The position numbers were made by a program, and so were the translations under genes. The notes under the pieces are model-generated. The model made no database searches. It saw nothing but the letters and a program-made list of their open reading frames with translations, and was not told the origin of the DNA. Of a DNA stretch of 64,000 bases, positions 5,024 to 38,895 are shown piece after piece; the stretch's first letter is position 1; each line of letters opens with the position of its first letter. Source of the stretch: Bacteroidales bacterium (GTDB taxonomy: Bacteria; Bacteroidota; Bacteroidia; Bacteroidales; WCHB1-69); NCBI GenBank assembly GCA_045130235.1, contig JBGUPJ010000021.1:256875-320874 (forward strand), given 5' to 3'.

Positions 5024-5031
5024 TAATTTTG
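5024..5031 (+). promoter_or_regulatory. Bacteroides-type -7 box (TAATTTTG) for the giant gene
   Basis: Exact TAnnTTTG match 57 nt upstream of the ATG at 5088, in an AT-rich 230-bp intergenic region. Confidence 0.4.
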
Positions 5032-5087: not shown

Positions 5088-8000
5088 ATGAAGCGATTGG
5101 GATTTAAACTGCTGTTAGCTGCAGCGATGGGCATGCTGTTGGGACATGTGCATGCTCAAAATACCAACAACTTATGCCTCAATGCCAACCCGTTCTGTAC
5201 GGATGAGAACCCTTACGGTGTTTCGTTCCCTGCGGGTACTGATGCTACGGCCACCCCGGACCTTCCGGATGCTCAGCGTGGCTGCTTGTATTATACTCCT
5301 GCACCGGCATGGTATGTGATGCAAATTGACAACCCCGGCGATCTGTTGATTTACATGCAGCACAGCGGTGGTCGTGATATCGACTTCGCTTGCTGGGGGC
5401 CTTTTACGGGCTACAACACATACGGCGAACTCCTCCAGGCTGTCTGTACTTCACGACTCACGGGTAATGGTAGTACCCATCGTCCCAACAATGGCTATCA
5501 CGATCCCAACAATCCCGGCACATGGGGCGGCTATCCCAACGGCAACCTCATCGACTGTAGCTATAGTGCGGCTTCTACAGAATGGTGCTTCATTCCTGAT
5601 GCACAAGTCGGTCAGTGGTATATCTTTTTGATTTGTAACTATTCGCGCGCTTCTGGTACCATCTCTTTCAATGTACAGGATGGTGAGGCTACCACCAACT
5701 GCAACATTTTGGCCAATATCAGTAACAACGGTCCTCTTTGTGAAGGAGAGGATTTGCAACTTTTCTGCAACGCCACCAGTACTATCGGTTATACCTGGAC
5801 CGGTCCCAACGGTTTCACCTCTAACCAGCAGAATCCTATCATTCCCAACGTGACCCCCGCCGCTTCAGGCACTTACACGGTCACTTATCGTCCCAACAAT
5901 GCCAATGAGGTGCAGACAGGTACCACCACCGTGGAGGTCTATGACCGTCCGACCGCTGAAATCACTCCTTCACAGGAAGGTCTGTGTAATGGTGAGGCCG
6001 TCATGCTGTACGGATCCTCCGACTGCGCAACGTGTCAGTATCAGTGGAGCAACGGTTCCAACCAGCATTCCATCAGTGTGCTGCCTACTGTAACGACCAC
6101 CTATACCTTGACGGTAACGAATGGCAATTGTAGTTCGGTGGCATCGCAGACTATCTTGGTGGGCGCAGTGCCTACCGTGGCAGTCGCACCTTCTGTCATC
6201 ACCCTCTGCTCTGCCATCGGTTATGTGGATCTGGAGGCTATCTCCACCCAGTGCGGTACGGGTTGTACATACGAGTGGAGCAATGGCGTCACGGGAGCAG
6301 TGGACCATGTCACAATGGGTGACTGCACTCCTGATGTGGACAACATCTTCACGGTGACCTGTACCAACAGTTACGGTTGTACGGCCGAAGCCTACGCCAT
6401 CGTCCGTATGACGGAGAACGTGAACGTGGCCGACTGTAACGTGTTCTATGCCGATAACCATGGTGATCCGGTATCGCAGGGTCTTACACCATCTTCGCCG
6501 ACAACGGTTCAGCATGCCATCGAGCAGGCTTCGTGTACCAACGCCATTATCCGACTGGATACGGGTGTGTACGTCATTGACCAGCCGATCCATCTGGCCA
6601 GCAACTTGACGATTGAAGGTGGATTTATGGATGATTATAAGGTGAAGACTTCTGAGATCGGAGCCACCACGATCTATCGTTCTAGCCAATACGTGGAAGG
6701 AACCTCAATGGCTCCGCGACTGGTGGCCATAGAGGCGAGCAGCTTGAACGACTTCCGTTTGCAGGACCTCACCATTCAGACCGCTGATGCCCCCAATCTG
6801 CCCGGCATCAACACCACCACCAATGCGGCTGATGATAAAGACTGCTACAATATGGTGGAGCCTGGCGAGCAGATGCCAGCAGCTTATGTCCATTGCGGCA
6901 ATACCGCCATTTCAGCATACCAAATTCTTCCGGGACAGAACCCTTACAGCCGTTTTGTCACGCTGTATAAGTCGGCCGAGCTGGGCGGAGTGCCGGCTAC
7001 ATTCACCGCCCTCGGACTGGATGTGGCAACGGTGACGGATGTGCCAGTGGACGGTAACCTGCGTTATGTGACCATCACCTTCATTGAAGTTCCTTTCGAG
7101 AATTTCAACGACTATTGCCAAGCCAACGGAACAGCTCCGACCGGTAGCGGTGTGGGTTATTATACAGACCTCTTCGGAATGCCGGGCGCTACGGTAGTCT
7201 ATGACGGTTATTTCTGTGTGGATGGAACAGGATTGCTCACCTTCCCCATCAATTATGACTATCAGGGCGGCAACTTGATTGTCATTTTCGACGGTATCGC
7301 TTGTTACACCAGCAACAACAATGGTGGTTGTACCATTACCGTGCAGGGTGGTACTACCAATGCAAGTGACTATATGTCGGGTCGTATGACTGTCCAAAGC
7401 AACACTCCTTTGAGTGGCCAGTGGGATCGTATCCCCAGATATTTTCCGGAGCGTCCCAATATCTCTTTCTTCACATGTACTGACCGAACGGTGGAAGGCA
7501 ATGTGGTGGCAACGGTCAATCCGGGCACTACGCCCCAGAGTTTCCCATTGCCGGGTGATGCGGGTCATCATCGTACTGCCGCTCTTTATACTTCCTCCGA
7601 GATTGGAACGGGTCCGCGTATGCTCTCCGGCATCGCCTTGGATGTGGCCAACATTAGTCCTGTGGCAGGTAGAACGCGCACGGTGCGCATCTATTTGAAA
7701 AATACTACGGATGCCACCTTGACCCCCGGTCAGGTGTGGAACCAATATATATCGAACTCTTCACTGGTATATTCGGGTACCTTCTGTGAGGATGCTACGG
7801 GTTGGACCACCTTCCCTGTCAACTTCGCCTACGAGGGTAACAATCTGATGGTGATGATTGAGGGTGAAGGCTGCGGTTCTACCGGTGGTTGTCCTGTGAT
7901 GGTTAATTGTAGCTCAGTAGCTGACCAATGCGTGTTCACCACCACCAATGATGGCGCCTACTATTCCATAAACTCACTGTCTGCCAGCGCTTATCGTCCT

Positions 8001-11000
8001 AATTTGCAGCTATATTCGACAAGTACAGAAGATGATATCTTCTATGTGAATGAATCCAATTACGGTGTCTCGACCTACGGTGTGCACTTGGCCAATTGTG
8101 GCCGGTACGACATCGTGCGTTGTCGTATCATTGCTGGAAATGCCAGCCAAGGTAAGAATGGTACTCCAGGAAAGAATGGTGGTGATGGTGGTGATGGTGG
8201 AAATGGAAGCCTTGGTTTGACGGGTGTGATTGAGGATGGCACACCTAATGGTGAGATGGGTACGCAGTTCGTGTCGGGTGGCGCTGGTGGTTTAGGAGGT
8301 AGAGCAGGAACCTCGGCAGGTACAGCTACTCCGGCCGGCCAGGGAGGAAATGGCGGTAACGGTGGCCAGTATGGAACCGAGACCCCGTATTCCACGAATG
8401 CTGGTGGTAATGGAACCGATGGCGGTAACAACCCCAATTCGCGTACGATGGGCCATACCAATGATGCGCAGGCCAGCTCGTCGCCGGGTACCGTAACGGC
8501 TACTGCTCAGTGGTCAAATGCTTCTTTAATACAGACGGCAGCCAATGGCTCTTCCGGTGTGAATGGTGTGAATGGTGTAACGGCTAACCCTGTATATAAC
8601 AACTACTTCAACCCCGGTGTTCAGGTGAATGGTGGCGATGGTACCGGCGGTAGCGGTGGTGGTGGCGGTGGCGGCGGTGGTGCCGCTGCGGCCAAGAACA
8701 CTTACGATTCCGATATGCGTCTGGCACTGGCTTCCGGTAGTGGCGGCGGCGGTGGCGGCGGCGGTGGCGGCGGCGGCCAAGGTGGCGGCGGCGGTTACGG
8801 CGGCGGCTCCTCCTTCGGTATCTACTCCTACAACGATGCCGGCAGCCGTACTATTATGGATTGCTACATCACAGCAGGTTCTGCTGGAATTGGCGGTGAT
8901 GGTGCCATTGGCGGTACTGGCGGTGTCGGCGGTGCCGGTGGCGTGTGCAATGATATTGCCAGCACAAGAGCAAGACGTAACAACAATAATGCTTTGACAG
9001 ATTATATGGCTTATGCCTATGCGGGTTATGGCGACAATGGCGGTTCCGGCGGTTCCGGCGGTTCCGGCGGCCGTGGTGCTAATGGCGCGCCCGGTGCCAG
9101 CCATGCCACCGTCGATGTGACGAACCTCGGTGTGCCGACCGCTCCGGCGGCTGGTTTCACCAACTGGCAGAACCTTACAACACAGCCTGTCATCTATGCG
9201 GGTTCCCATGAACATCCCTATACCAGCTGTACCGATGTGGATATGGACATGTGCGATGAAAACAGTTCGCTTTACTACACGACCTTCGGTAGCGAAGCCA
9301 CCCCGGCATCAGGAAATTCATGTACCACTATCCAATACACGGGTACCACCTCCGACCTCCCTGGTCAGGTGACGGCAACCGGTCGTAAGACCCCGCGCGC
9401 TACGGGTGCTAGCTCTTCCGGATACTATTCCGGATTCAATCTTGTGCTTTTCAGCCCCATCGATCCTGGCCATATCACGGGTAACCCCGATGTGTGTCCG
9501 GGTGATTACAGTTACTGTATCACATACGAACCTGGTTATTTCTATTCTTGGGATATTATTCAAGGTAGAGAATACGCGGAATTCATTTCCGATACCACCC
9601 TCAACTGCGTGGCTGTTACCTTCACGAATATTACAACGGAAGTACAGCAGGTGGCTCTCGAAGTCCAGATCAGCCCGCCCTGCTGCCCGAGTTTTGCACG
9701 CGACACGTTCTGGATCGATGTGGAACCCATGGTTCACATCTCTTATTTGACACCCGATATGCGTCTCTGTACGGGTGATGATGCTACACTGACGGTAACG
9801 GCTACCCCGCCGGATGCCACCTACCAGTGGATGCTGAACGGCAACCCCATCAGCGGCGCTAACACGAATACCTATGAAATTACCGATGCCTCACCTGTCA
9901 ATACGGGTGAGTATGTGGTGGTGGTGACCGGTGCGTGTAATGTGGAGATGGATACGGTGGAGGTGACACTCTATACCATGCCGGTAGTGGAGGTCGTGGT
10001 GGATGAGCCTCTGTGCGTGCCCGACTATCCGCTGTTTATCTTCACCTCTAATATGAATGGAGTGGAAATTACCTATACTTTCGAGGGTAATACCTATACA
10101 GAAATACTTGACGAAGGTGAGAATTATGTGGATTGGATTGAAGCCCACGGCACAGGAATTGTCTCTGTGATTTCAGCCATCTCGCCGGATGGATGCGAGA
10201 ATACTGCTATCTCACAAGACCTGTTCCTCGCCATGAACAGCGATGATGTTACTTCCGCAGGTCCTGACCGTACCTATTGTGAGACATACGTTCCCATAGA
10301 AGCTGTTGAGCCCGACAATGAGGGAGACCATGTGAGTTATGGTCACTGGGAATTCGTATCTGCCATGCCTCCAGCTAATACCGTCATCTTCGACGATGTC
10401 AACGCTTATAGTACCCATATCACAGCCAGTGGCCCTGGCACATACGAGATTCGTTGGGTGCTGACTGTGGAAAGCCCTTGCCCCGACGAAGTGGCCGATA
10501 CAGTGGTGATTACCATCACGCAACCGCTTAACTTCAATTTCAGTCCCAATCCCGCTTCCTGCTATGGTGAACCGGTTGACCTTACCGCAATTGGTAGCGG
10601 CGGAACATCTCCGTACACCTACTATTGGATTGATAATAGCGATCCCTCTAATCCAGAAGTCATTTCCGTAGAAGACCATGCCGATGGCTTAGTGCCTGGT
10701 GTGAACTACTTGTTGGTGATGATGGATGAGAATGAATGCGAACTCGACAGTAACTTTGTTATCGAGCTGCTTGCCTCTCAAACGGTTTCCATCCGTGATA
10801 TTGATACCATTTGTCCTAATGAGAATTCATTCCCCATCACAATTGATATCTCACAGGGTACAGCCCCATTCCATATCTCCCTTTCATGTCAAGGCCGTAC
10901 CTATAATTTTGACTCGGATGAGTCTCAAGTGGATTATACAATGCCTTTGTTGAATACAGGGTGTGACCTTCACGACACTATTTTCATGACTGTATCGGAC

Positions 11001-20000: not shown

Positions 20001-23000
20001 GCAACTATTACCGCTCGTGATGTGGACGCTCCTGTGGTAGATGGTCAGCTTGATTCAATAGTGGTGGATGGCTGCTCAGCTGAGGATGCTCCCGCCGCCC
20101 AAACAGCTGCTGAACAGTTGGAGGGAATGGGAGTGACCATCTCTGATAACTGTACAGACAATGAGGATATCGTTGTGACTTATGCGGATGTGGTGACAGG
20201 TAGCTGCCCGATTCAAGTTACCAGAACTTATACCCTGACCGACCATTGCGGTCTGCAGACTTCTATACCGCAGATTATCCAGATACAGGATGTGGAAGCC
20301 CCGGTGGCAGAAAATCCGGATTTCGAGGAAAATGTACAGGGATGCTCTCTGGCTGATGCTCCTGCGGTGGTTGCCTCGGTGCAGGAATTGAGTGATATGG
20401 GATTTGAGATTTCTGATAATTGTACTGATATTGATGATCTGACTTTCACTTACGAGGAAAGCTCCGCCGGCAATTGTCCGATTATGTTGCTGCGTCAATA
20501 TGTGATTTATGATGTATGTCAGAACGCAAGTGACACATTGTGGCATACGATTTACATTATGGATGATGTTGAACCTGTGATTTCCGGCACGGTCGCAACC
20601 CGCCTAATTGAAGGCTGCGATATTACCGCTTTGGGCGATGATACGCTCGTACATACGGTGGCCGGTTTGCAGGCATTGGGCTTGCAGGTAACCGAGGACT
20701 GTTCGTTCGACGAACTGTTGGTTTATGCTGAAGAAGAGGTGAACGGTCACTGCCCGATAGTGGTTACCCGTAGCTATTTCGTAGAAGATCTTTGTGGAAA
20801 TCGTAGTAATACGGTTACACAAATTATCAATATCCAGGATACTACACCTCCTGTCTTTGAAGGTCTGCCGACTGAATTGACCCTCACTTCCGATGAATGT
20901 CTGTTCTTCGTTCCTGACTTTGAAGAAGAGGCGATGAACCATGTCACCGACAACTGTGGCGGTCTGACATTTGAACAGTCTATAGAAGACGGCACAACAC
21001 TGTCGGCCAGCACAGATATTGTACTGACGATGACCGACGAGTGCGGTAATTCTGCTTCCCATACCATCCATCTTATCGTTCCTGAAGAATTGCAAGTGTC
21101 TATCGCACAGCAAGACACTGCTTTCTGCGAAGGCGGTAGTGTGGTGCTGACGGCAACCGTAACGGGTGGCACTGCCGATTATGTGTTCGCTTGGACTCCC
21201 ACCACCGGCTTGGACGCTTCAGACCAGTCGCAGGTGACGGCCACACCCACCACCGGAGATTATCCGTACGAAATTACAGTGACCGATGCCAATCGTTGTG
21301 TCGCTACCGCCAGTGTAAACGTGACCGTTTACGAGACTCCGGCAGCTGCCGTTTTGGATGCTTCCGACAATACCATCTGTAACGGCACGCCCAATGGCAC
21401 CATTACCGTTACATCACCGCTGGGCGCTTATTATGAGTACTCTCTCAACGGTGGGGAATACCAGTCGGATCCGGTCTTCAGTAACCTGGATGCCGGCGAC
21501 TATGTGGTGGTGGTTCGCACCGCCGACGGCTGCCTCTCTGCTGAGGCGACTACCACGATTCAGACGGTTCTCAACTGGCCTGAAGTCACCATCTCGGTGG
21601 AAGGCAACCTCACCATGTTCTGTCCCAGCGTGGGTACCCGTGAGGTGACCGCAGCAACTACTGGCGGTCAGCCCGAATACACTTATACTTGGTCGGGTGT
21701 GACGAATTCCAACGATGAAACTGCCACAGTGGATGTCAATCCCGACGCTTGTGATACCACCTATCAGGTGATGGTTGTTGTGGAAGATGAATATCATTGT
21801 ACCGCCACCGCTTCCGTTACCCTTACGGCACGCGATGTGACCCCGCCTGCCATCTTAGGCCGTTTGGATACCTCTGTATATTATGGCTGCGATGTGTCGG
21901 TGCTGCCCTCACCTGCTACCACAGGTCTTCAGCTGAACGCCCTCGGCCTGATGTTGTCGGAGAACTGTACGAATCCCGACATCTGCGAGGTTTCCAGCTA
22001 CGATGATGTGTCGGGCTACTGTCCCATCACCATCGTTCGTCATTACACTATCATTGACCATTGTGGAAATGTGAGCAACGAGTTGCAGCAGGTGATGTTG
22101 GTCCTCGACAATGTGGCTCCGACCGTTACAGCGGCGAACATTACAACTAATGTGAACGGTTGCACCGTGGCAGCGGCTCCCGCCGTCATCACCGACCCGA
22201 CCGAGCTGGCTGCATTTGGCTTCACCTTCAGCGACAACTGCTCCGACATCACCGACCTGACGGTGAGCTGCGAGGCCGACACCAGCGACACCCACTGCCC
22301 GATTACCATTGTGCGTACCTACACGGTTACCGACCCGTGCGGAAATAGCAGAGCTGGTATGGTGAATACCATCGAGATCTTCGACAGCGTGGCACCTGCC
22401 CTTTCAGGCACGATTGCTACAGTAGCTATCGATGGTTGCGACCTCACCGCACTGGAGGGCTATGCCGCCGTCACGACAGCGGATGCCCTTGCTGCTCTCG
22501 GCATCACCATCAATGAAGAATGCTCTGATGTGGAAGTGTTCAGCGAGGAGACCTCTGAGGGTGAATGCCCCATCGTGGTCACCAGAACGTATTGGGTGGT
22601 GGATGAATGCGGTAATGTGAGCAACACCGTTTCACAAACTATCAATATTCAAGATACCACCAGCCCTTACTTTACGAGCGTGATTCCTGAACAATATCTG
22701 GTGGGTCAGGGTGGACAGTTTTTCATCCCCGACCTCTCTGCAATTGCGTTGGCTTTGTCTGGCGATAACTGCACACCGCAAGGTCAGATGACCATGACAC
22801 AGACTCCTGCTGTCGGTGTTCAGGTGACCCACGACCAGGATGTGACGGTGGTGATTTACGACCTCTGTAACAATACCGACACCATGCTGGTGCCTGTCAT
22901 TCTGCCCGATGTGCTTCAAATTCACATCGTACAAGATGATGCCCGCTTCTGCTTCGGCGACAGCATCCTGCTGACCCCGTCTGTGGGCGGTGGCTCCGCA

Positions 23001-26000
23001 CCGTATGCGTTTGAATGGACACCTAACGATGGCGGTCTCAACGCTTACGACACGCTGAATGTGACGGCTCGTCCTTCTGTGGGCACGCACGTCTATACCG
23101 TGACGGTCACCGACTTCAACGGTAGCACGGCTTCTGATGACATCACCATCATTGTGGATTCCATCCCGGCAGTGCCCACGCTGGTCGCTACTGGCAACAC
23201 TGTATGCGACGGCACGCCGAACGGTACCATTACGATAACCAACCCGCTTGATCCGGATTATACCTACTCGCTGAATGGTGGCACTTACCAGAGCGAGCCT
23301 TCGTTTGGCGAACTCGCCCCTGGCACTTATACCGTTACGGTACAGACTCCGGCAGGCTGTACTTCAGATCCGGCTACAGTGGAAGTTCCGGATGAGACCG
23401 CATCACCTGTCATCACCATCGTCCAGACCCTTGACACGCTCTGCCCGAATGTCGGTACCTATACGCTGACCGCAGAGATCGTTGGCGGTGAAGCTCCGTT
23501 CACCTACACTTGGAGCGGCGACGGTGTGGCCGATGCCAATGCCCTCACCACCACGCTGACCGTGGATGCCAATGCTTGTAATACCTTCTACGTTTCTAAT
23601 ATCAATGTGGTAGATGTCAACAACTGTACGGCTACGGATGCCGACACAGTTTACGTGCGCGACACCGATCTGCCCACCATCACGGGCGACCTTGCCGTGG
23701 TGACCTACAATGGCTGCACCATCGATGTGCTGCCCGCCGGTGCCACTACCGCCACCGAACTCGAAGCCCTCGGCGTGACACTGGCCGACAACTGTACCGC
23801 TGCCGATGCCCTTGTCGTGAACATGCGCGAGGTGGTTGACGGAAGCTGCCCCATCGTGGTAAGCCGTTACTACACCGTTACCGATGCCTGCGGTAATGTG
23901 AGCGAGGAGTTCCTCCACACGTTGCAGGTATTCGACAGTGTGGCTCCGCAAGTTACGGTCAATGAGGTGACCACTCACCTGAATGGCTGCGACGAGACGG
24001 CTGCCGTTGCAGTGGCTACCACGTCTGCGCAGTTGCTGACTTTGGGATTTGTATTTGATGATGGATGTACGGATGTCAATGCACTGGTTGTCAATTCTGA
24101 AGAGACGATCGACGGCACTTGTCCGACAACCATCACCCGTACTTATACGGTGACCGATGAATGCGGTAATGTGAGCGCCACGATGACGCACACCATCACC
24201 GTGTTCGACAGCATCGCACCGGTTATCAATGGTGCCATTGCGGATGTGACCGTGGATGGTTGTAGCGTGAACGACATTGCCGACCGTCCGATGGCTACTA
24301 CCGTGGCTGAATTGCTGGCTCTCGGTGGAATCACCATTGATGAGGCTTGCTCATCTGACGATCTAACTTTGAATAGCAGTGAAGCTATTACTTACGGCTG
24401 TCCGATTGTAGTGATGCGTACCTACTCGGTGACCGACTTCTGTGGCAATATCAGCAGCGAGGTGACCGAGACCATCACCATTCAGGATGTGACAGCTCCG
24501 GTATTCGCCGAACAGGTGGCTGAGCACCTGCTGGCATCTACTGACTGCCAGTTTGTGGTTCCCGACCTCGTAGAAGAGGTGAGAGCGGTCAGCTCCGACA
24601 ACTGCGTGACCGATCCTGCCGAGCTCCTCATCACCCAAGAGCCTGCTGCCGGCTCTCCCGTTACCGCCGACATGACGGTGGCCGTGACGGTGACCGACAC
24701 CTGCGGCAATGCGTCTGTGATGAACATCCAGCTCCGTCTGCCCACCGTGGTAACCCTCTCTATCGAGCCTTCTACCACCCAGTATTGCGAATGGGATACC
24801 GTAGCGCTGACGGCTATGCCGGAAGGCGGCAACGGTAACTATACTTACGAATGGACACCCGCCACGGGTCTGCTTTCCACCACCGACTCCATCGTGCTGG
24901 TGAATACAGAAGAGCAGAACTTCACCTACCATCTGGTGGTGACCGACGGCAACGGCTGTACGGCACAGGCCGACTTCACGCTGCCCGAACCGAGCCACCT
25001 GACGGTGAGCGTGGCACAGCAGCATATCATCAGCTGCTTCGAGGGTAGCGATGGCGCTGTGGTGGCTGCCGCCGAAAATGGTGTGACCGACTACACGTAT
25101 GCTTGGAGCAACGGTACAACGGCCGCCTTGTGCGACAACCTCTCAGAAGGTACCTATACCGTAACGGCTACCGATGCATACGGCTGTACGGCTACCGCCT
25201 CCATCGACATCACCCATCCGACAGAACTGACCGCTACTATCTCCGATGAGACCGCGGTGCTCTGCTTCGGCGATGCCAACGGTAGCGGCACGGTGACTCC
25301 GACTGGCGGCACCGCTCCGTACACGGTAAGCATTAACAACAACGCGACCACTTATCCTGTCGGAGAGGGTGATTCCTACACCTTCACCGGCCTTACCGCT
25401 GACACCTATACCGTATTGGTGACCGACGCCAACGGCTGTACGTTCAACGCCACCCTGATGGTGGGTACGCCCGAGGTGTTGGCAGTGACCGAGATGGCCA
25501 ATACCATGCCGCTCTGCTTCAACGGCGACGATGGTACGGCTACGGTGAACCTCACCGGTGGTACGGTGCCTTACACCGTCTCCGTGAACGGCACGGAAAC
25601 ACTGACCGCCGATGCCGAAGGCGAACAGCTGATACATAACCTTTCCGCTGGCAGCTACACCGTTTCAGTGGTGGATGACCACGGCTGTTCTGCCCAGATC
25701 ACCATCACCATCAACCAGCCCGATGCTTTGCAACTGGCTGAGGTGGGCACGGTGAATGTGAGCTGCTTCGGCTTGAGCGATGCTACCGCTACTGTCTCGA
25801 TGAACGGTGGTACTACTCCTTACACGCTGTGGATCAACAACAATGAGCAGCAGCAGACCGTCAACACCATCCAGAATGTGACCTTTACCAACCTGCCCGC
25901 GGGTACACATACCGTAACGGTTCAGGATGCTAACGGCTGCTTAACCACTATGCCGGTCACCATCACCGAGCCTAACGAGCTGGCACTGACGGCTACGAAT

Positions 26001-28184
26001 GCCGTGGCGGTGCTCTGCTTCGGTGATGCTAACGGTTCTATTTTGGTCACGCCTTCTGAAGGGACGGCACCTTATACGGTGACGGTTGACAACTTCGCCA
26101 CTACCCAGACGATTCCTGCGGGTGCTAACTACAACTTTGCAGGGTTGGCAGCTGGCGACTATACCGCCGCTGTGCGCGATGCCAACGGCTGCGAGGCTAC
26201 GGCCGACTTCACCATCACCACCCCGGATGAGCTGACCCTCGCCGAGGCGTCCACCACCGACCCGCTCTGCTACCAAGGCAGCGACGGACAGGTGGAGGTG
26301 ACGATGGCTGGTGGTGTAGAGCCCTATAGCATGACCGTTGACGGTACTGCCTACGCCAATAACCTGACAGCTGGTAACAGCGCCATCACTGATTTGAATG
26401 CTGGCGACCATGTCATTGTCATTACCGATGCCAACGGCTGTACAGCTACGGTGACTTCCACGCTTGGTGAACCCGACCTGTTGACCCTCACCCAGACTGC
26501 CATCACCCCGATTACTTGTCATGACGGTGACGATGGTACGGTGACGATGAGCGTGGCCGGTGGTACGGCTAACTATTCTGTTTGGATTGATGCTTCGTTG
26601 CAGCAGCAAACGCTTGCTTCTACTGCAGAAACCGCCCTCTTTACCGGTATGAACGGTGGGACCCATACCGTGACGGTGGTCGATGACCACCAGTGTACGG
26701 CCACCTTGCAAGTGTCGTTCGTGAATCCTGATCCGTTCTCAACGGTGGTGGATGCCACTACCGATGTGCTCTGCTTCAGCGAGTCCAACGGTACCGTTAC
26801 CTTCACCGTTTCAGGTGGTACGGTGCCCTATATCGTGACGCTCGATCCGACCATTCCTGACATTACCCTGAATAGCGAAGATCCTTATACCTACAGCCAG
26901 CTGTGGGCCGCCGACTATCAGGTCAGCATCGTGGATGCCCACGGATGTGAGGCTACGATGCAGTTCACCATCAACCAGCCCGATACGCTGGATGTGGAAG
27001 CACGAGTGGTGAACCATGTCAGCTGCTTCAGCTATACCGATGGTAACGTGACCGCCGATGTGACCGGTGGTGTTCAGCCCTACAGCTACAACTGGGACAA
27101 CGACCAGCACGAGCAGAATCTGAACAACGTGGGTTCTGGCTTCTATGTGGTGACAGTCTCCGACTACAACGGTTGTATCGCTACCGACACTACCTTCGTG
27201 AGCGAACCCGAACTGTTGCATGTAGAGCTGGTGACCGTAACGGAGAGCTGTGCGGGTGAAGAGACCGCTGTGATTGATGTGGATGCTATGGGTGGTACCC
27301 CCGACTACACGTTCCTCTGGAGCAATGGTGCCACTACCGACTCCATCTTCAACCTTGCGGTGGGCTTCTACACGGTAACCGTGACGGATGCCAATGGCTG
27401 TCCCGATACGATGACCGTGGAGGTGCCGTACCACGCACTGCCCGATTTTACCGTTAGTGTGACGCCTGCTTACTGCGACCGTCCCGACGGTACGGCTACG
27501 GTGGTGGGCAGCAACACCGAACTTTACACCTACGATTGGCATGCTGATAACAACCCGAACGCACCGTTCAACGATGCGCTGACGGGAGGCAACTATGTGC
27601 TGACCGTCGATGACGGCGTGTGTACCCTCGACCTGCCGTTCACCATCAACAATATTCCTGGACCGACAGCCAGCTTCGATGCCGATCCTACTACCTTCAT
27701 CCAAGGTGCGGTGGTGCGTTACCATGACCTTTCTTCGGGTACTATCGTGTCGTGGAACTACGACTTCGGTGATGGCAACGGTCAGGATGTCCGGAACCCG
27801 TCGCACGAGTTCGGAGAGCCGGGCGAGTTTATCACAGTGCTGACCGTTACAGACGAGCACAACTGCTTCGATACCGCCCAGATTACCATCACGGTGATTC
27901 CCGATGTCATCTACTACGCTCCGAATGCTTTCACCCCGAACGAAGACGGTATCAACGATATGTGGCTGCCGGTGATGAGCAACTATGGCGATGATTTCTA
28001 TGAGTTGTACATCTACAACCGCTGGGGTCAGCTGATCTTCAAGTCCAACGATCCGAATGTGGGCTGGGACGGTACCTTCAATGGTAAGAATTTGGAGGCC
28101 GGAGTGTATGTGTATGCGGTTGGCTATCACAATTTGATGGGTAAACTCATCAAGAGAGAAGGCACGATTACTTTGATTCGTTAA
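5088..28184 (+). CDS. Giant (7,698 aa) T9SS-secreted, SprB-like repeat adhesin with type-B C-terminal sorting domain
   Basis: The ORF is 23,097 nt and uninterrupted. It starts with the signal peptide 'MKRLGFKLLLAAAMGMLLGHVHA-Q'. It contains Ig-like modules and at least 34 HYR-like modules carrying '(T/V)RTYTVxDxCGN'. SprB-type repeats such as 'CFGDANGSxTVTPTGGTAPYTV...YTVxVTDANGC' follow, then a PKD domain ('WNYDFGDGNGQDVRNPSHEFGEPGEFITVLTVTDEHNC'). The C-terminus 'PNAFTPNEDGINDMW...IYNRWGQLIFKS...GWDGTFNGKNLEAGVYVY...GTITLIR' matches the gliding-motility-associated type-B T9SS CTD (TIGR04131-like). Confidence 0.93.
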   Translation: MKRLGFKLLLAAAMGMLLGHVHAQNTNNLCLNANPFCTDENPYGVSFPAGTDATATPDLPDAQRGCLYYTPAPAWYVMQIDNPGDLLIYMQHSGGRDIDFACWGPFTGYNTYGELLQAVCTSRLTGNGSTHRPNNGYHDPNNPGTWGGYPNGNLIDCSYSAASTEWCFIPDAQVGQWYIFLICNYSRASGTISFNVQDGEATTNCNILANISNNGPLCEGEDLQLFCNATSTIGYTWTGPNGFTSNQQNPIIPNVTPAASGTYTVTYRPNNANEVQTGTTTVEVYDRPTAEITPSQEGLCNGEAVMLYGSSDCATCQYQWSNGSNQHSISVLPTVTTTYTLTVTNGNCSSVASQTILVGAVPTVAVAPSVITLCSAIGYVDLEAISTQCGTGCTYEWSNGVTGAVDHVTMGDCTPDVDNIFTVTCTNSYGCTAEAYAIVRMTENVNVADCNVFYADNHGDPVSQGLTPSSPTTVQHAIEQASCTNAIIRLDTGVYVIDQPIHLASNLTIEGGFMDDYKVKTSEIGATTIYRSSQYVEGTSMAPRLVAIEASSLNDFRLQDLTIQTADAPNLPGINTTTNAADDKDCYNMVEPGEQMPAAYVHCGNTAISAYQILPGQNPYSRFVTLYKSAELGGVPATFTALGLDVATVTDVPVDGNLRYVTITFIEVPFENFNDYCQANGTAPTGSGVGYYTDLFGMPGATVVYDGYFCVDGTGLLTFPINYDYQGGNLIVIFDGIACYTSNNNGGCTITVQGGTTNASDYMSGRMTVQSNTPLSGQWDRIPRYFPERPNISFFTCTDRTVEGNVVATVNPGTTPQSFPLPGDAGHHRTAALYTSSEIGTGPRMLSGIALDVANISPVAGRTRTVRIYLKNTTDATLTPGQVWNQYISNSSLVYSGTFCEDATGWTTFPVNFAYEGNNLMVMIEGEGCGSTGGCPVMVNCSSVADQCVFTTTNDGAYYSINSLSASAYRPNLQLYSTSTEDDIFYVNESNYGVSTYGVHLANCGRYDIVRCRIIAGNASQGKNGTPGKNGGDGGDGGNGSLGLTGVIEDGTPNGEMGTQFVSGGAGGLGGRAGTSAGTATPAGQGGNGGNGGQYGTETPYSTNAGGNGTDGGNNPNSRTMGHTNDAQASSSPGTVTATAQWSNASLIQTAANGSSGVNGVNGVTANPVYNNYFNPGVQVNGGDGTGGSGGGGGGGGGAAAAKNTYDSDMRLALASGSGGGGGGGGGGGGQGGGGGYGGGSSFGIYSYNDAGSRTIMDCYITAGSAGIGGDGAIGGTGGVGGAGGVCNDIASTRARRNNNNALTDYMAYAYAGYGDNGGSGGSGGSGGRGANGAPGASHATVDVTNLGVPTAPAAGFTNWQNLTTQPVIYAGSHEHPYTSCTDVDMDMCDENSSLYYTTFGSEATPASGNSCTTIQYTGTTSDLPGQVTATGRKTPRATGASSSGYYSGFNLVLFSPIDPGHITGNPDVCPGDYSYCITYEPGYFYSWDIIQGREYAEFISDTTLNCVAVTFTNITTEVQQVALEVQISPPCCPSFARDTFWIDVEPMVHISYLTPDMRLCTGDDATLTVTATPPDATYQWMLNGNPISGANTNTYEITDASPVNTGEYVVVVTGACNVEMDTVEVTLYTMPVVEVVVDEPLCVPDYPLFIFTSNMNGVEITYTFEGNTYTEILDEGENYVDWIEAHGTGIVSVISAISPDGCENTAISQDLFLAMNSDDVTSAGPDRTYCETYVPIEAVEPDNEGDHVSYGHWEFVSAMPPANTVIFDDVNAYSTHITASGPGTYEIRWVLTVESPCPDEVADTVVITITQPLNFNFSPNPASCYGEPVDLTAIGSGGTSPYTYYWIDNSDPSNPEVISVEDHADGLVPGVNYLLVMMDENECELDSNFVIELLASQTVSIRDIDTICPNENSFPITIDISQGTAPFHISLSCQGRTYNFDSDESQVDYTMPLLNTGCDLHDTIFMTVSDDNGCTAYDTAAFVVADIYAPVISGIIPNDTFACPSDIPVAFNSLSMLTQNLSGGDNTITDNCSIGVMLSMTMSETTDIEGCKYTIVRTYTVSDACNNSSTVTHTIIVEDTIAPVVVGTLSDMNVTCVDDVTSEISDLNTLISTYRLTVSDNCSPLGDLTLAATTENFTALCGASYIRTYTITDTCGNSTDIIQNIIFNDNTPPVVTGTLRDTTIYAAADCSFSNVTAYATVSDLAVAGVTVTDCNLVDEITYVDDNTDPIDVCEKIITRTYTITDSCNNSVDISQQIHVVDTISPAVVDNLRDTNVYYIDAQCHYNEVAVLNITDFEVTDCNDVNLTVTHRDTVGAPGDCEWSYVRVYSFTDICNNAPTILEQTITVRDTTRPQVVDNLEDTILYYTGNECELDPFPHLTLSDFDVEDCRYENLQFSVVERDTTSGGEGCEWTYTRVYTFADDCNNTTVSIDQLITVRDTTRPDIAGTLPDTTIYRLADCTYELPANLTIAGLEAAGLTITDCNLDNTVAVSDANLVGNDCSATVVRTYTISDLCGNSNTITQNIIIEDTTRPYLTAPIADSLLTATNCDFVVPDFVTIARTLAVDNCTATANIDIQQSEAAGTPVTDAMDVTVTLEDACGNDTSYTIHISLPEELTLTLHQGDTAICEGQSVTLPTTFTGGVAPYTYEWQPTSGLNVADADTVVATPEDGTYNYQVTITDNNGCTASQTVTVIVDTLPAEPTLTPTPDVACQGGSNGTITIEDPVGAGYSYSLNGAAFQDTTNVYSGLSANNYTVVVQSNTVNGTNCQATSTIEVESSPTNPRVAIDSLDVDLLLCPNQGTQVITARILSGTEPYVVAWTGATVDPADSLTATVAVDAAACDSVYTVSIMITDGNECEASSEYAFRIVDTLAPAIHGVLVNDTVACPNDVPAPYADLTALNAALVGNDAGIEDSCTAFANLVMTMETADYTQSCDYQIVRTYNVADECGNSSSITHTIIVHDTIAPVITGTIDAEMVVCVADFTDAVQTVDDLLALLQGGTITDNCCDAEHLTLTSTTDNFTSYCNGDYVRTYTVTDSCGNFTSIEQHLIVNDNVNPVIEGTLADITIFADSSCNHTLPTAFTTVTELSAQGLTITDCNLVSEIQFADADMVDYDACNTLVVRTYTVSDSCNNSSTITQNIYIQDTIHPWLSEMIADSLLTGVNCEFVVPDFVAIAVTLAQDNCTAQADINVEQSPAAGTSADADGDVTITLTDVCGLQTTYTVHYTLPTEPVLMLHQGDTAVCEGQSVTLPTTLVDGTAPFTYSWTPTAGLNVTNADTVVATPDRGTYTYTVTVTDANGCTSQVSVTVEVDTIPATPVMTQEPNVACHGDANGSITITHPVGNGYSYSLNGADFQDTTNVYNGLIQGQYTVVVMTDAQAACKATNTIEVENSPAIPSVAIDTLLVDLCPNQGTQEVTAQILSGLAPYVVTWENATMDATDSLLATVTFDAAVCDSNYSVTVRIVDGNECETYSNYVFRVADSLAPVMADFVDTLRVEGCDDSAAPAVLTTEDELATLGMSYTDECTAVGNFAVSCTSDTAGTCPIVITRYYTVTDECGHVSNPAIHRILIDDETAPEVTVAEVIDTLNSCGAQNAPAAATTPAELQAIGFAFSDLCTATADLTLSLVADTTSDGCTVEMNRTYTVTDACGNESAVMTHIIRIHDSIAPVINNEIPELTLYGCDTTTVLAAYPPATTVAELLALGGISITEACTPQDEIVVHHRADSTGLCEIVVTRTYWVEDACGNLSNEVSHVIRILDTFAPTVNVTLSDTTIYYTTTHCDYDEVAILSQDYFNAQDCHQVNMEVVHHDTVGAPGDCEWSYMRDYRFTDECGNGPVIVSHQIMVKDTMRPQVVDDLRDTILYFVGNDCTLPTYPRLTLSDFNVEDCRYDNLQFSVIERDTTNNGEGCEWSYTRIYTFADDCNNTSVSIDQLITIQDTTRPAIDGTLLDLTVYRLEDCSFVLPDTLTIAGMSESLVITDCNLDHNNVGIAHSDMEGDNCDGTIIRTYTLSDLCGNSTTINQTIHIVDTTRPYLTEIIPDTVLVSNDCHFVVPDFVTIAYGQSHDNCTAVADLTITQSVAAGTDVTADMDVTVTLADACGNDTSYTIHLTMPTVPQITLHQGDTAICEGESVLLPTTYENGTAPYEFSWTPTDGLSSTMADTVTATPAHGVYVYVVTITDANGCTATATATVTVDTLPAIPDLTSEPNVACHGDANGSIQVIAPLGTGYSYSLDGVTFQDETLFENLTDSNYVVTVLTAEGCQSTGNVTVGRSPAIPAVTIDSLAADLLLCPNQGTQTITAQILNGLAPYEVTWTGATQSATDSLTATVDVDATNCNAIYSVTVTIVDGNECEAHSTYNFSIVDTMTPIITGIVPNDTVACPNDVPAVFADLTALAAALVGDETSIIDSCTTFANLEMSVETAEYVQSCEYQIVRTYSVTDECGNTSSITHTIYIHDTIAPVISGTLADVTVVCVEDMPAAVQTVAELLAMLQGDDAAITDNCSDFAGLTLTSATPEFTALCHASYVRTYTVSDTCGNTTTITQNLIFEDNVNPVVEGALADITIYTDSSCNHTLPAAWTTVADLTDAGLDISDCNLSSDVTASDADMTVVDACTNLVVRTYTVSDSCGNSTTTSQNIYIEDTIHPWMQPIADTLLVSTDCHFLVPNFEAAAALLAHDNCTADADIDIQQSIPAGTELSDAADVVLTLTDLCGLQSTYTIHVTIPEELQIAILQDDTAFCDGGNVALATEVTGGTPDFTYSWTPTTGLDDPASSAPVATPTEGTYNYEVEVTDANGCTSLAGVEVVVWESPDTAVVTITPNSMCEGGFNGIIEVTSPLGTYYQYSLNGDEYQVSPIFDELRAGTYVITVQTLDGCTSQSVTVVVPNSDNMPNASIVVDNPVICPNAGNQTVHVTVTGGDTPYGYEWLGEAVITSQDDEAVVQIDPDACDSVYTFSIEVVDVNNCVATAYATITARDVDAPVVDGQLDSIVVDGCSAEDAPAAQTAAEQLEGMGVTISDNCTDNEDIVVTYADVVTGSCPIQVTRTYTLTDHCGLQTSIPQIIQIQDVEAPVAENPDFEENVQGCSLADAPAVVASVQELSDMGFEISDNCTDIDDLTFTYEESSAGNCPIMLLRQYVIYDVCQNASDTLWHTIYIMDDVEPVISGTVATRLIEGCDITALGDDTLVHTVAGLQALGLQVTEDCSFDELLVYAEEEVNGHCPIVVTRSYFVEDLCGNRSNTVTQIINIQDTTPPVFEGLPTELTLTSDECLFFVPDFEEEAMNHVTDNCGGLTFEQSIEDGTTLSASTDIVLTMTDECGNSASHTIHLIVPEELQVSIAQQDTAFCEGGSVVLTATVTGGTADYVFAWTPTTGLDASDQSQVTATPTTGDYPYEITVTDANRCVATASVNVTVYETPAAAVLDASDNTICNGTPNGTITVTSPLGAYYEYSLNGGEYQSDPVFSNLDAGDYVVVVRTADGCLSAEATTTIQTVLNWPEVTISVEGNLTMFCPSVGTREVTAATTGGQPEYTYTWSGVTNSNDETATVDVNPDACDTTYQVMVVVEDEYHCTATASVTLTARDVTPPAILGRLDTSVYYGCDVSVLPSPATTGLQLNALGLMLSENCTNPDICEVSSYDDVSGYCPITIVRHYTIIDHCGNVSNELQQVMLVLDNVAPTVTAANITTNVNGCTVAAAPAVITDPTELAAFGFTFSDNCSDITDLTVSCEADTSDTHCPITIVRTYTVTDPCGNSRAGMVNTIEIFDSVAPALSGTIATVAIDGCDLTALEGYAAVTTADALAALGITINEECSDVEVFSEETSEGECPIVVTRTYWVVDECGNVSNTVSQTINIQDTTSPYFTSVIPEQYLVGQGGQFFIPDLSAIALALSGDNCTPQGQMTMTQTPAVGVQVTHDQDVTVVIYDLCNNTDTMLVPVILPDVLQIHIVQDDARFCFGDSILLTPSVGGGSAPYAFEWTPNDGGLNAYDTLNVTARPSVGTHVYTVTVTDFNGSTASDDITIIVDSIPAVPTLVATGNTVCDGTPNGTITITNPLDPDYTYSLNGGTYQSEPSFGELAPGTYTVTVQTPAGCTSDPATVEVPDETASPVITIVQTLDTLCPNVGTYTLTAEIVGGEAPFTYTWSGDGVADANALTTTLTVDANACNTFYVSNINVVDVNNCTATDADTVYVRDTDLPTITGDLAVVTYNGCTIDVLPAGATTATELEALGVTLADNCTAADALVVNMREVVDGSCPIVVSRYYTVTDACGNVSEEFLHTLQVFDSVAPQVTVNEVTTHLNGCDETAAVAVATTSAQLLTLGFVFDDGCTDVNALVVNSEETIDGTCPTTITRTYTVTDECGNVSATMTHTITVFDSIAPVINGAIADVTVDGCSVNDIADRPMATTVAELLALGGITIDEACSSDDLTLNSSEAITYGCPIVVMRTYSVTDFCGNISSEVTETITIQDVTAPVFAEQVAEHLLASTDCQFVVPDLVEEVRAVSSDNCVTDPAELLITQEPAAGSPVTADMTVAVTVTDTCGNASVMNIQLRLPTVVTLSIEPSTTQYCEWDTVALTAMPEGGNGNYTYEWTPATGLLSTTDSIVLVNTEEQNFTYHLVVTDGNGCTAQADFTLPEPSHLTVSVAQQHIISCFEGSDGAVVAAAENGVTDYTYAWSNGTTAALCDNLSEGTYTVTATDAYGCTATASIDITHPTELTATISDETAVLCFGDANGSGTVTPTGGTAPYTVSINNNATTYPVGEGDSYTFTGLTADTYTVLVTDANGCTFNATLMVGTPEVLAVTEMANTMPLCFNGDDGTATVNLTGGTVPYTVSVNGTETLTADAEGEQLIHNLSAGSYTVSVVDDHGCSAQITITINQPDALQLAEVGTVNVSCFGLSDATATVSMNGGTTPYTLWINNNEQQQTVNTIQNVTFTNLPAGTHTVTVQDANGCLTTMPVTITEPNELALTATNAVAVLCFGDANGSILVTPSEGTAPYTVTVDNFATTQTIPAGANYNFAGLAAGDYTAAVRDANGCEATADFTITTPDELTLAEASTTDPLCYQGSDGQVEVTMAGGVEPYSMTVDGTAYANNLTAGNSAITDLNAGDHVIVITDANGCTATVTSTLGEPDLLTLTQTAITPITCHDGDDGTVTMSVAGGTANYSVWIDASLQQQTLASTAETALFTGMNGGTHTVTVVDDHQCTATLQVSFVNPDPFSTVVDATTDVLCFSESNGTVTFTVSGGTVPYIVTLDPTIPDITLNSEDPYTYSQLWAADYQVSIVDAHGCEATMQFTINQPDTLDVEARVVNHVSCFSYTDGNVTADVTGGVQPYSYNWDNDQHEQNLNNVGSGFYVVTVSDYNGCIATDTTFVSEPELLHVELVTVTESCAGEETAVIDVDAMGGTPDYTFLWSNGATTDSIFNLAVGFYTVTVTDANGCPDTMTVEVPYHALPDFTVSVTPAYCDRPDGTATVVGSNTELYTYDWHADNNPNAPFNDALTGGNYVLTVDDGVCTLDLPFTINNIPGPTASFDADPTTFIQGAVVRYHDLSSGTIVSWNYDFGDGNGQDVRNPSHEFGEPGEFITVLTVTDEHNCFDTAQITITVIPDVIYYAPNAFTPNEDGINDMWLPVMSNYGDDFYELYIYNRWGQLIFKSNDPNVGWDGTFNGKNLEAGVYVYAVGYHNLMGKLIKREGTITLIR
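8150..9100 (+). repeat. Glycine-rich low-complexity coding segment of the giant gene
   Basis: The translation contains 'NGTPGKNGGDGGDGGNG', 'GGAGGLGGRAGTSAGT', 'GGDGTGGSGGGGGGGGGAAAAK', 'GSGGGGGGGGGGGGQGGGGGYGGG' and 'GDNGGSGGSGGSGGRGANGAPG'. At DNA level these are long runs of GGY codons. Confidence 0.85.
11040..24900 (+). repeat. Seven diverged tandem super-repeats (~1.8-2.6 kb each) inside the giant gene
   Basis: The anchor motif 'xC(E/D)G(Q/E/G)SVxLxT...PYxYxWTPTxGL' recurs at about 12945, 14800, 17450, 19290, 21105, 22925 and 24775. Each unit is an Ig-like module, a SprB-like module, a second Ig-like module and 3-7 HYR-like modules. Aligned stretches I compared by eye (12175-12540 against 16675-17040) are roughly three-quarters identical. 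Confidence 0.75.
24990..27650 (+). repeat. Block of ~11 consecutive SprB-type repeats (~75-80 aa) in the giant gene
   Basis: Each unit recurs as 'L(T/A)xxxxxxxxxxC(F/Y)xxx(D/N)Gxxxxxxx GGxxPYxxxxxxx...YTVxVxDxxGC'. Confidence 0.8.
27906..28181 (+). other. Type-B T9SS C-terminal sorting domain of the giant protein
   Basis: The last ~92 aa match the hallmark positions of the gliding-motility-associated C-terminal domain: NAFTPN.DG.ND, NRWG, GWDG and G.Y.Y. Confidence 0.85.
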
Positions 28185-28186
28185 AG

Positions 28187-28624
28187 ATGAAGGTAAGAGC
28201 GCTTTTATGGATAATTATGATTGCCCTCCTTGCCTCGTGCGATAAGTACGAGCAGGGAGGCTATCTCTATCAAACTCCGCAAAATATCAGGGGTACTTGG
28301 GAGTATGAGGAGGTGGTGGAAAACCATCTGCCGATGGACGATAGCACCTTCGAAGCCCGTTACCGCCACTCTTCCGTTACCTTCGAACGGGGGAGTAGCG
28401 CCGTTTTTCATTGGAAAATACAGGATTCTATCGAGCAAGAGGAACATGCCTCATACGTCTTCAACTATAATAAAACGAAACTGTGCGTCATTTTCGATGC
28501 CTATCCTTTGGACGAACAAGTCTGGGTGGTGAATAAGTTGACGAAAGATGAATTTTGGTTCTCCTGTGTCCTGAGCGATGATGAGTCAGTGGATATTAAA
28601 TTAAAGAAAATTGCTAAAAAATGA
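28187..28624 (+). CDS. Small lipoprotein, lipocalin-like domain
   Basis: The 145-aa product has a lipobox in 'MIALLASC|D'. 'GTWEYEEV' and 'NKLTKDEFWF' resemble the bacterial lipocalin-like (Lipocalin_4) pattern. The ATG lies 2 nt after the giant gene's TAA. Confidence 0.65.
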   Translation: MKVRALLWIIMIALLASCDKYEQGGYLYQTPQNIRGTWEYEEVVENHLPMDDSTFEARYRHSSVTFERGSSAVFHWKIQDSIEQEEHASYVFNYNKTKLCVIFDAYPLDEQVWVVNKLTKDEFWFSCVLSDDESVDIKLKKIAKK

Positions 28625-29085
28625 TGAAGAAAATCTTACTGGTTTGCCTATTGGCTTTAAGTGGAATAGTCTTTGTATCATGTCGATACAATGAAGGGCC
28701 ATGGATTAGTTTCATTAAGCCTGAAGAACGGCTGGTGGGCTATTGGAAGTTGGCCGATGTGTATTGTAATGGAACGAAAGTCGATTCCGCCACCGTGTTC
28801 GCCAATAAGGCGGGCAATTATTACGCCTTCTTCTTTGAGGGAATGGTGTCGGTTTCGGCATTGGATACCACGATGAACCGTTGGGAAGAGTCGGACTACG
28901 GTGGCTGGCAGTTCGAGAACCATTGCAAAGAAATCTATGTGACTTTCTCCCTCAAACATCGCAAATATGAATATACGGCTACCATCAAGCGCCTCACCCG
29001 CGACGACCTCATATATGAGTATAACGACAACAACGGCGACCTCTGGCGCTTAGAGTTCGAAAGCCGCTCCACCATGTATTATTAA
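28621..29085 (+). CDS. Small lipoprotein, lipocalin-like domain (paralogous architecture)
   Basis: The 154-aa product has a lipobox in 'GIVFVSC|R'. It carries 'VGYWKLADVY' and 'KRLTRDDLIYEY'. A 4-nt ATGA overlap links it to the preceding lipoprotein gene. Confidence 0.65.
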   Translation: MMKKILLVCLLALSGIVFVSCRYNEGPWISFIKPEERLVGYWKLADVYCNGTKVDSATVFANKAGNYYAFFFEGMVSVSALDTTMNRWEESDYGGWQFENHCKEIYVTFSLKHRKYEYTATIKRLTRDDLIYEYNDNNGDLWRLEFESRSTMYY

Positions 29086-32737: not shown

Positions 32738-32765
32738 CATCATTTTCTTGAATTGCAATAAAAGG

Positions 32766-32800
32766 TTTTCAATTTTCATTTTTCAATTCTCAATTCTCAA
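32766..32800 (+). repeat. Heptanucleotide tandem array, locus C
   Basis: The units are TTTTCAA TTTTCAT TTTTCAA TTCTCAA TTCTCAA. The shared module TTTATTCGTATCTTTGCACC follows directly. Confidence 0.9.
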
Positions 32801-32808
32801 TTTATTCG

Positions 32809-32816: not shown

Positions 32817-32852
32817 CACCCACATCTTCCACCCTATAAAATCCCACCCATT

Positions 32853-38871: not shown

Positions 38872-38895
38872 CATCGTATTTTATTGGCTATTAAA

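Follow-up and report, generated by a model that had tools for sequence, protein, structure and literature searches.

The stretch of DNA analysed here (the window: 64,000 nt of contig JBGUPJ010000021.1 from the Bacteroidales assembly GCA_045130235.1, positions 256,875 to 320,874 of the forward strand) contains one gene that takes up 36% of its length and encodes a protein of 7,698 amino acids (aa). We propose, with a probability of roughly 70%, that this giant protein is a static filament adhesin on the surface of an uncultured herbivore-gut Bacteroidales, which would be exported by a type IX secretion system (T9SS), anchored in the outer membrane and tipped by a distal head that binds a ligand. 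By its sequence the protein is type-B T9SS cargo, as it carries a C-terminal domain (CTD) of type B above the model cutoff and a Sec signal peptide that was read by eye, and comparison with its orthologues indicates that the gene is real, conserved and no artefact. An earlier note, made from the letters of the window alone, had described a completely open 23.1-kb reading frame covering 36% of the window and a single gene for a giant repetitive T9SS type-B cargo with a stalk of immunoglobulin (Ig)-, HYR- and SprB-type modules. Coordinates and openness proved to be exact, with the only stop codon being the terminal one after 7,698 translated codons, and the general reading is supported by the analysis presented here.

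Export signals and stalk

Models from Pfam and NCBIfam were run on ten overlapping pieces of the protein and were complemented by iterated hidden Markov models (HMMs) of our own, built from the protein itself. At the C-terminus TIGR04131 matches aa 7611–7698 with 62.9 bits (cutoff 35) over positions 3–85 of the 85 in the model, CHU_C (PF13585) reaches 59.6 bits (cutoff 27), and the type-A CTD model scores 23 bits on the same stretch, which equals its cutoff of 23 bits. With the preceding PKD domain (PKD_4, 44.5 bits) this end of the protein agrees with the earlier note, which had read a PKD domain and a type-B CTD there. At the other end, aa 1–23 show a basic n-region, a hydrophobic core and a VHA–Q junction, a pattern that is kept in 12 orthologues.

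The long stalk consists of seven super-repeats in which HYR_4C-type modules are arranged in blocks of 7, 4, 7, 4, 4, 4 and 4. Three Ig/SprB-type modules, each of about 84 aa, come after every one of the first six blocks, and the seventh leads into the C-terminal array. HYR_4C (PF23237) was found in seven of the ten overlapping pieces, in five of them above the 27-bit cutoff and with up to 66 bits, and Pfam matches to K319L-like PKD, PKD_4 and Ig_7 are interspersed in the stalk. In the last two overlapping pieces the SprB repeat (PF13573) scores 111 bits over 4 stretches and 176 bits over 8, respectively, and our own HMM finds Ig/SprB-type modules 12 times in the C-terminal array, 18 times interspersed and six times N-terminal to the stalk. 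Scans for HYR, the SprB repeat, PKD and TIGR04131 thus support the repeat and CTD assignments made before: at least 34 HYR-like modules had been counted, and iterated HMM tiling gives exactly 34, while the array of SprB-type repeats is present with 12 copies instead of about 11.

When the protein is aligned with itself, aa 2200–3400 match aa 3700–4900 with 57–67% identity and are shifted by about 1,500 aa throughout, which shows that a unit made of a 7-module and a 4-module HYR block, each with its three following modules, was duplicated. As this duplication is common to a 66%-identical orthologue of 7,695 aa, it is old. A shorter relative of 6,803 aa lacks about 875 aa, corresponding to one super-repeat block, and the alignment offset goes from 20 to 895; thus the length of the stalk differs between lineages by whole blocks. 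The missing block lies roughly at aa 3790–4810 of the giant protein (window ~16450–19500).

Most HYR modules have four Cys, the last one of each block has two or three and a few have five. The linkers between modules read D-[ST]-x-x-P. The motif D[ST][AILVMT], the O-glycosylation sequon of Bacteroidota, occurs 89 times compared to 56.6 ± 6.9 in shuffled sequences, with many of the copies located in inter-module linkers. Overall the protein has an extreme composition, with 13.8% Thr, 258 Cys and just 19 Lys (0.25%) in 7,698 aa; for a strict anaerobe, such scarcity of Lys and such a number of Cys are puzzling.

Conservation and selection

Colinear orthologues of 7,699, 7,695 and 6,803 aa were found in independent rumen and hindgut Bacteroidales assemblies. 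The first is called on a 454-kb contig of GCA_045222555.1. The second, representative of a cluster at 50% identity (P0121), is 66% identical to the giant protein with 65 indel positions, and the third is present on two ENA contigs (ERZ27256977 and ERZ28653806), one of them with a MEGAHIT-style name (k141_). In addition, on four contigs from metagenome-assembled genomes (MAGs; ruminal_MAG_467, ruminal_MAG_106, Tb.RUG.202 and, from sheep rumen, RGIG6737) the frame stays open to the end of the retrieved sequence, over 4,356 codons or more, and the 3' portion of the gene is present on four metagenome contigs, three of which are open across the whole 10-kb flank. All close relatives come from Bacteroidales MAGs of rumen, sheep caecum and horse faeces, which gives no support to the Prevotella-like host considered in the earlier note.

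Against the four MAG orthologues the ratio of nonsynonymous to synonymous substitution rates (dN/dS, Nei–Gojobori, about 4,350 codons) is 0.10–0.12 overall and below 0.2 in every region for which it could be estimated, the Gly-rich tract included, with synonymous sites being near saturation. For the Cys-containing N-terminal domain it is 0.06–0.09, and in the region of the Gly tract, where 355 codons align with the orthologues without a gap, it is 0.09–0.19. These values indicate strong purifying selection on the giant gene.

The earlier note had also named repeat collapse or expansion as a risk. Protein repeat blocks are at most 67% identical to each other, self-matches of the DNA inside the gene reach at most 72.5% identity over at most 504 nt, and the longest exact DNA repeat has 25 nt and lies within the poly-Gly codons, which are located near window positions 8700–8800. 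As the repeats are this diverged, collapse appears unlikely and of no concern outside the Gly-rich tract. Within this tract short-read contigs end; one Logan contig is identical to the window in the upstream gene and in the translated Gly-rich stretch and stops at aa 1228. Two relatives deserve to be mentioned here. The orthologue in the horse-faeces MAG117 has a frameshift at aa 3692 (contig L010, 13890–13960) with homology going on in the next frame, which may be an assembly error or a pseudogene. A relative with 85% identity (P0001, on three contigs possibly from one sample) is homologous up to aa 1059, near window position 8260, where a PBP2-like gene in reverse complement takes over; its three contigs end about 180–480 nt beyond this junction, so that either a chimera at the Gly-rich tract or a true truncation could be the reason.

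The N-terminal head

The head comprises aa 24–1345. Among Pfam and NCBIfam models only Ig_2 matches aa 1–1345, the NCBIfam scan gave no model in aa 1–3000, and sequence matches in the PDB were obtained only through the Ig domains, with no significant match for profiles of aa 25–215 and aa 445–1023. The earlier note had been unable to assign this set of modules to a described protein; this holds for curated families other than Ig_2, but each part belongs to a widespread family that carries no name. The Ig-like modules it had seen near the N-terminus are confirmed (Ig_2, aa 216–276), and together with the preceding Cys-containing domain they form a unit (aa 24–444) that hundreds of T9SS type-B proteins share at 40–55% identity; many of these proteins are from Bacteroidales and Paludibacteraceae MAGs, and in many the unit is located at the N-terminus. 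In a Pfam scan of these relatives no model covers the Cys-containing domain, and a comparison of the domain with the N-terminus of P0137, a relative of the Chitinophagales type, gave nothing significant.

The remaining head is composed of one domain family split in two parts, aa 445–584 and aa 985–1345, with a beta-helix-like start and rungs interleaved with Gly-rich runs. This family is widespread in Bacteroidota and both parts are contiguous in proteins from Chitinophagales, Sphingobacteriales and Flavobacteriales, whereas in the clade studied here they are separated by an insertion of two jelly-roll modules, each about 200 aa long. No Pfam model covers the domain in the relatives scanned. 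The beta-helix start proposed in the earlier note is plausible from the sequence, but AlphaFold2 gave no confident model there, with a predicted local distance difference test score (pLDDT) below 50. The Gly-rich tract it had described is real, with 110 Gly in aa 1001–1360. A collagen-like triple helix was considered for this tract and set aside, as its G-x-x runs are just 4–9 triplets long.

The two jelly-roll modules are 32–35% identical and correspond to the two-copy module of the earlier note; the duplication is real, but the size is about 190–210 aa and not about 270 aa, the motifs quoted at that time being 207 aa apart. We found 126 copies of this family in 53 retrieved proteins, one of which has as many as 14 in tandem, and other very large proteins carry such arrays, at least one also with HYR and CHU_C-associated Ig domains. 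Neither here nor in the relatives scanned does a Pfam model match, and a PDB profile search remained without a significant hit. For module 2 AlphaFold2 predicts a confident beta-sandwich on an alignment of 32 sequences. By Foldseek it resembles, in the PDB, a cyanophage capsid-associated protein, the lectin-like domain of Cwp84, CBM35 and MAM domains, with template modelling (TM) scores of at most 0.48. In BFVD it matches phage proteins better: the top hit has a TM score of 0.70 at 22% identity, 46 matches reach E ≤1e-3, and many are annotated as collagen-repeat, pectate-lyase-superfamily or minor-tail proteins, which are the same three ingredients as in the head of the giant protein. Foldseek matches of the larger aa 445–1023 model (PHM, neuropilin b1b2, meprin) had TM scores of at most 0.17 and were taken just as a hint of tandem jelly rolls. 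Judged from these sequence comparisons, it is the domain combination and the insertion of the jelly-roll pair that is specific for the clade, and not the single head modules.

Gene neighbourhood

Two genes for small predicted lipoproteins, named lipoA and lipoB here, follow the giant gene almost without a gap (Table 1). Homologues of lipoA are located directly 3' of orthologous giant genes on three contigs (L048, L049, L050), and on the three contigs with the 7,699- and 6,803-aa orthologues a gene for 139–146 aa takes the same place, an assignment made by position and not by homology. LipoB follows the giant gene in all five contexts examined, including one directly 3' of an orthologue with a 58%-identical C-terminal region, and its family comprises just seven clusters among 5.8 billion proteins. 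The two lipoproteins show no detectable similarity to each other and lipoB has no meaningful PDB match. The complete trio recurs with the same flanks in MAG_467 and in an unrelated neighbourhood (MetRS, WYL, RtcB) beside the 6,803-aa gene, and is thus conserved across different genomic neighbourhoods.

For the neighbouring genes 39 open reading frames (ORFs) of the window were scanned, namely 36 of at least 150 aa and three shorter ones downstream. None of them, the neighbours of the giant gene included, matches PorP/SprF (PF11751), and none reaches the cutoff of the models for gliding genes. In contrast, PorP_SprF is present directly downstream in all five distant type-B relatives tested (116–221 bits). 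With its type-B CTD and no adjacent porP/sprF gene the giant protein would be an 'orphan' substrate in the sense in which a report on Flavobacterium johnsoniae uses the term (PMC12618676). A 713-aa protein encoded nearby (window 32748–34889, + strand) has a T9SS type-A CTD (TIGR04183, 40.8 bits) and no other recognisable domain. From this nearby cargo gene we infer that the host probably uses a T9SS, including the type-A route; two further type-A CTD genes are located near the 7,699-aa orthologue.

Three other loci of the window were noted. A 326-aa protein with an FGE-sulfatase domain (38785–39765, + strand) scores 118.8 bits with the GldK/PorK model (cutoff 350) and 55.7 with GldJ (cutoff 458), and is by these models no T9SS or gliding component. 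A region of low G+C content (0.41; 46492–48446, − strand) encodes a type II restriction-modification pair, in which the endonuclease belongs to the HpyAIV family (254 bits, cutoff 160) and the N6/N4 DNA methylase carries a RAMA domain. An ORF of 765 aa (43949–46246, + strand) has no Pfam or NCBIfam match; on a Logan contig from SRR25030085 the corresponding gene call has 761 aa. The giant gene itself has a G+C content of 0.50–0.57 compared to about 0.47 in its flanks; horizontal transfer was considered for this reason and set aside, since the Gly/Ala/Thr-rich composition would be the simpler explanation.

Table 1: Features of the giant gene and its surroundings, with positions in the window.
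Feature	Position	Strand	Basis or remark
Putative −7 promoter element TAATTTTG	5024..5031	+	64 nt 5' of ATG; regex scan of the 232-nt intergenic region
Giant adhesin gene (predicted)	5088..28184	+	ATG start, 7,698 aa; mature protein ~811 kDa, pI 4.05
Sec signal peptide, aa 1–23, MKRLGFKLLLAAAMGMLLGHVHA followed by QN	5088..5156	+	Read by eye from sequence
Cys-containing N-terminal domain, aa 24–210	5157..5717	+	Unnamed family; no Pfam, NCBIfam or PDB match
Three Ig-like domains, aa 217–282, 299–358, 373–439	5718..6419	+	Ig_2 33.3 bits (aa 216–276); own HMM
Beta-helix-like domain, part 1, aa 445–584	6420..6839	+	CNVFY...NLTIEGGF...LQDLTIQTADA; matches hundreds of Bacteroidota proteins
Jelly-roll module 1, aa 585–795	6840..7472	+	Own HMM 96.6 bits
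Jelly-roll module 2, aa 796–984	7473..8039	+	Own HMM 212 bits; AlphaFold2 pLDDT 89.3, predicted TM score (pTM) 0.88
Beta-helix-like domain, part 2, and Gly-rich tract, aa 985–1345	8040..9122	+	G-x-x runs of 4–9 triplets
Middle region, aa 1346–1990	9123..11057	+	Ig-type aa 1560–1626, 1824–1892, 1908–1982 (Ig_3, Ig_7, own HMM); rest without assignment
Stalk, seven super-repeats	11058..24740	+	34 HYR_4C-type modules
C-terminal array of 12 SprB-type repeats, aa 6566–7520	24741..27647	+	Period ~84 aa; PF13573 and own HMM
PKD domain, aa ~7537–7603	27648..27917	+	PKD_4 44.5 bits (aa 7546–7603); PDB ColH PKD domains, E 3e-10
Type-B T9SS CTD, aa 7611–7698	27918..28181	+	TIGR04131 and CHU_C
lipoA, predicted lipoprotein, 145 aa	28187..28624	+	Lipobox LLASC; starts 2 nt after the giant stop codon; no Pfam match
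lipoB, predicted lipoprotein, 154 aa, lipocalin-like	28621..29085	+	Lipobox FVSC; 4-nt overlap with lipoA; Lipocalin_4 24.1 bits, cutoff 22.4
Upstream genes			OppC-type permease, D-lysine 5,6-aminomutase alpha subunit, Na+/H+ exchanger
Downstream genes			lipoA, lipoB, S46 dipeptidyl-peptidase, AAA_14/DUF4143 protein, type-A CTD protein, acyltransferase, MurC-like ligase, 326-aa FGE-sulfatase protein

Proposed function

The preferred reading, a static T9SS-exported adhesin, can be put together as follows. The giant gene, lipoA and lipoB are tightly packed and conserved as a group, and are probably transcribed together from their own promoter, for which TAATTTTG is the candidate, as it fits TAnnTTTG, the −7 promoter consensus of Bacteroidota. 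The protein would leave the cytoplasm by Sec through its predicted signal peptide, and its type-B CTD would then be recognised by the T9SS, as suggested by work in F. johnsoniae and Porphyromonas gingivalis. In F. johnsoniae a type-B CTD is both required and enough for secretion by the T9SS, and a shuttle of the PorP/SprF family collects each type-B substrate, the shuttle gene usually being located just downstream (9 of 12), with three 'orphan' substrates using one orphan shuttle (PMC12618676). In the non-motile P. gingivalis, PorP anchors a type-B protein (PMC9143113). A shuttle of this family encoded elsewhere in the genome would presumably also collect the giant protein at the outer membrane and anchor it.

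The stalk would then consist of about 71 beta-sandwich modules (34 HYR_4C, 36 Ig/SprB-type and one PKD). Since the 52 Ig-like repeats of the protein GhpA correspond to a hook of 240 nm, scaling to 71 modules gives an estimated length of about 0.25–0.3 µm, and disulfides within the modules, together with O-glycans attached to the D(S/T)x linkers, probably stiffen the stalk. GhpA, a T9SS substrate of 5,898 aa, has a distal adhesive head at its N-terminus, an Ig stem and a C-terminal anchor (bioRxiv 10.1101/2024.01.29.577165). Accordingly oriented, the N-terminal 1,345 aa of the giant protein, with the Cys-containing domain, three Ig domains and the beta-helix-like/Gly-rich domain carrying two jelly rolls, would form the distal ligand-binding head. 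Going by fold similarity, it most likely binds a glycan, carried by feed particles, by other microbes or by material of the host. LipoA and lipoB are putative accessory factors specific for the clade.

Several points weigh against this reading. The 64-kb window contains no PorP/SprF, PorE or T9SS core gene, so that the secretion partner is assumed, and the length of the stalk is an extrapolation. A strictly anaerobic and reducing habitat puts stabilisation by disulfides in question. The head has no confident model as a whole, with AlphaFold2 reaching a pLDDT of 53 for aa 445–1023 on an alignment of seven sequences and less than 50 in the beta-helix-like part. Furthermore, jelly-roll folds are common and the TM scores to solved structures stay at or below 0.48, which makes the modelled fold weak evidence for calling the modules 'lectin-like'.

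Giant T9SS adhesins are abundant in genomes of Bacteroidota, and to our knowledge only SprB and GhpA have been studied in depth, both from aerobic gliding or predatory bacteria. Here an uncultured anaerobic lineage of rumen and hindgut keeps an 811-kDa type-B cargo under strong purifying selection, with a composite head specific for the clade, a stalk varying in length by blocks and a lipoprotein pair in place of an adjacent PorP/SprF as its notable features. The pairing of giant gene and lipoproteins would give a workable entry point to the handling of orphan type-B substrates, and three unnamed but widespread families (the Cys-containing N-terminal domain, the beta-helix-like/Gly-rich domain and the jelly-roll module of 190 aa) could be curated. 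If the head does bind plant or microbial glycans, this would bear on bacterial attachment in the rumen.

Alternative readings and comparison with known systems

A first alternative, which is unlikely, starts from the conserved trio. The giant adhesin, lipoA and lipoB might represent a distinct T9SS surface-appendage system specific for the herbivore gut, in which the lipoproteins instead of an adjacent PorP/SprF aid assembly or anchoring and a head resembling phage fibres oligomerises into an organelle capturing particles or microbes.

The second, likewise unlikely, is that several copies build a rigid appendage, comparable to the heptameric GhpA hook or to phage fibres, which catches cells or particles after oligomerisation through its Gly-x-x runs and beta-helix-like domain. 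GhpA from Aureispira sp. CCB-QB1 (PDB 9flp) indeed has the same layout with a Sec signal, an N-terminal head, a long Ig-like stalk and a C-terminal T9SS signal, and the Ig domains at aa 217–439 match its stem repeats (9flp_A, E 2.5e-165, 24 stretches). In the PDB searches no GhpA match was obtained for aa 25–215, aa 445–1023 or aa 1341–7698, nor for the C-terminal 298 aa with the CTD, so that the likeness to hook module and stem is limited to aa 217–439 and homology does not extend over the full layout. Furthermore, homologues of PorP (ghpB) and PorE (ghpC) flank ghpA but not the giant gene. The predicted phage proteins from BFVD also combine a jelly-roll fold, a beta-helix-like segment and Gly-x-x runs, as the head does. 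Phage fibres with collagen repeats or a pectate-lyase-superfamily domain are typically trimers. This likeness is only structural, with no sequence family in common with solved structures, the jelly rolls are inserted into a cellular surface protein here, and the G-x-x runs are too short for a stable collagen helix.

Third, and improbable in our view, the protein could be a true mobile adhesin of the SprB type that, once secreted, is taken up by the gliding machinery and driven over the surface of a gliding host. SprB of F. johnsoniae, a gliding adhesin of 6,497 aa with SprF as its shuttle, is likewise a giant repetitive T9SS cargo, comparable in size to the giant protein, which is predicted to be a filamentous surface adhesin as well. 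Both PF13573 repeats, with 12 copies in the C-terminal array, and the TIGR04131-type CTD are found here, and orphan type-B substrates of F. johnsoniae can also go to the gliding track (PMC12618676). The 'SprB-like' of the earlier note is therefore justified for repeats and CTD, but not for the rest: the stalk consists mainly of the 34 HYR_4C modules rather than of SprB repeats, the head belongs to unnamed domain families, sprF does not follow directly downstream, and neither sprC, sprD nor any gld gene is present in the window, where the sole match to GldK or GldJ is the FGE-sulfatase protein (118.8 bits with a cutoff of 350). PorP_SprF, kept next to the gene in the distant type-B relatives, is not kept in this clade. 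Orthology to SprB, of which the PDB searches brought up no matching entry, and a role in gliding are unsupported.

That the long reading frame is fortuitous, being an assembly artefact or a decaying pseudogene as the contig breaks in the Gly-rich tract, the switch into a PBP2-like gene and the frameshift in the horse-faeces MAG might suggest, is very improbable and, judged from sequence, effectively refuted by the full-length colinear orthologues in independent assemblies (including the 454-kb and MEGAHIT contigs), the frames that stay open in at least four other assemblies for the 5' half and likewise for the 3' half, the low dN/dS at nearly saturated synonymous sites and the divergence of the internal DNA repeats.

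The closest precedents for the arrangement of the gene are smaller proteins. [quoted passage not shown] As far as these sources go, the giant protein differs from all of them by being several-fold larger and by the conserved pair of small lipoprotein genes that abuts its stop codon. Though not common, proteins of more than 5,000 aa have been documented well (PMC11573180; bioRxiv 10.1101/2023.11.21.568195). The best reading is that the giant protein works like other giant T9SS type-B adhesins, a known kind of protein, here with a tip made of unnamed domain families and with two small partner genes.

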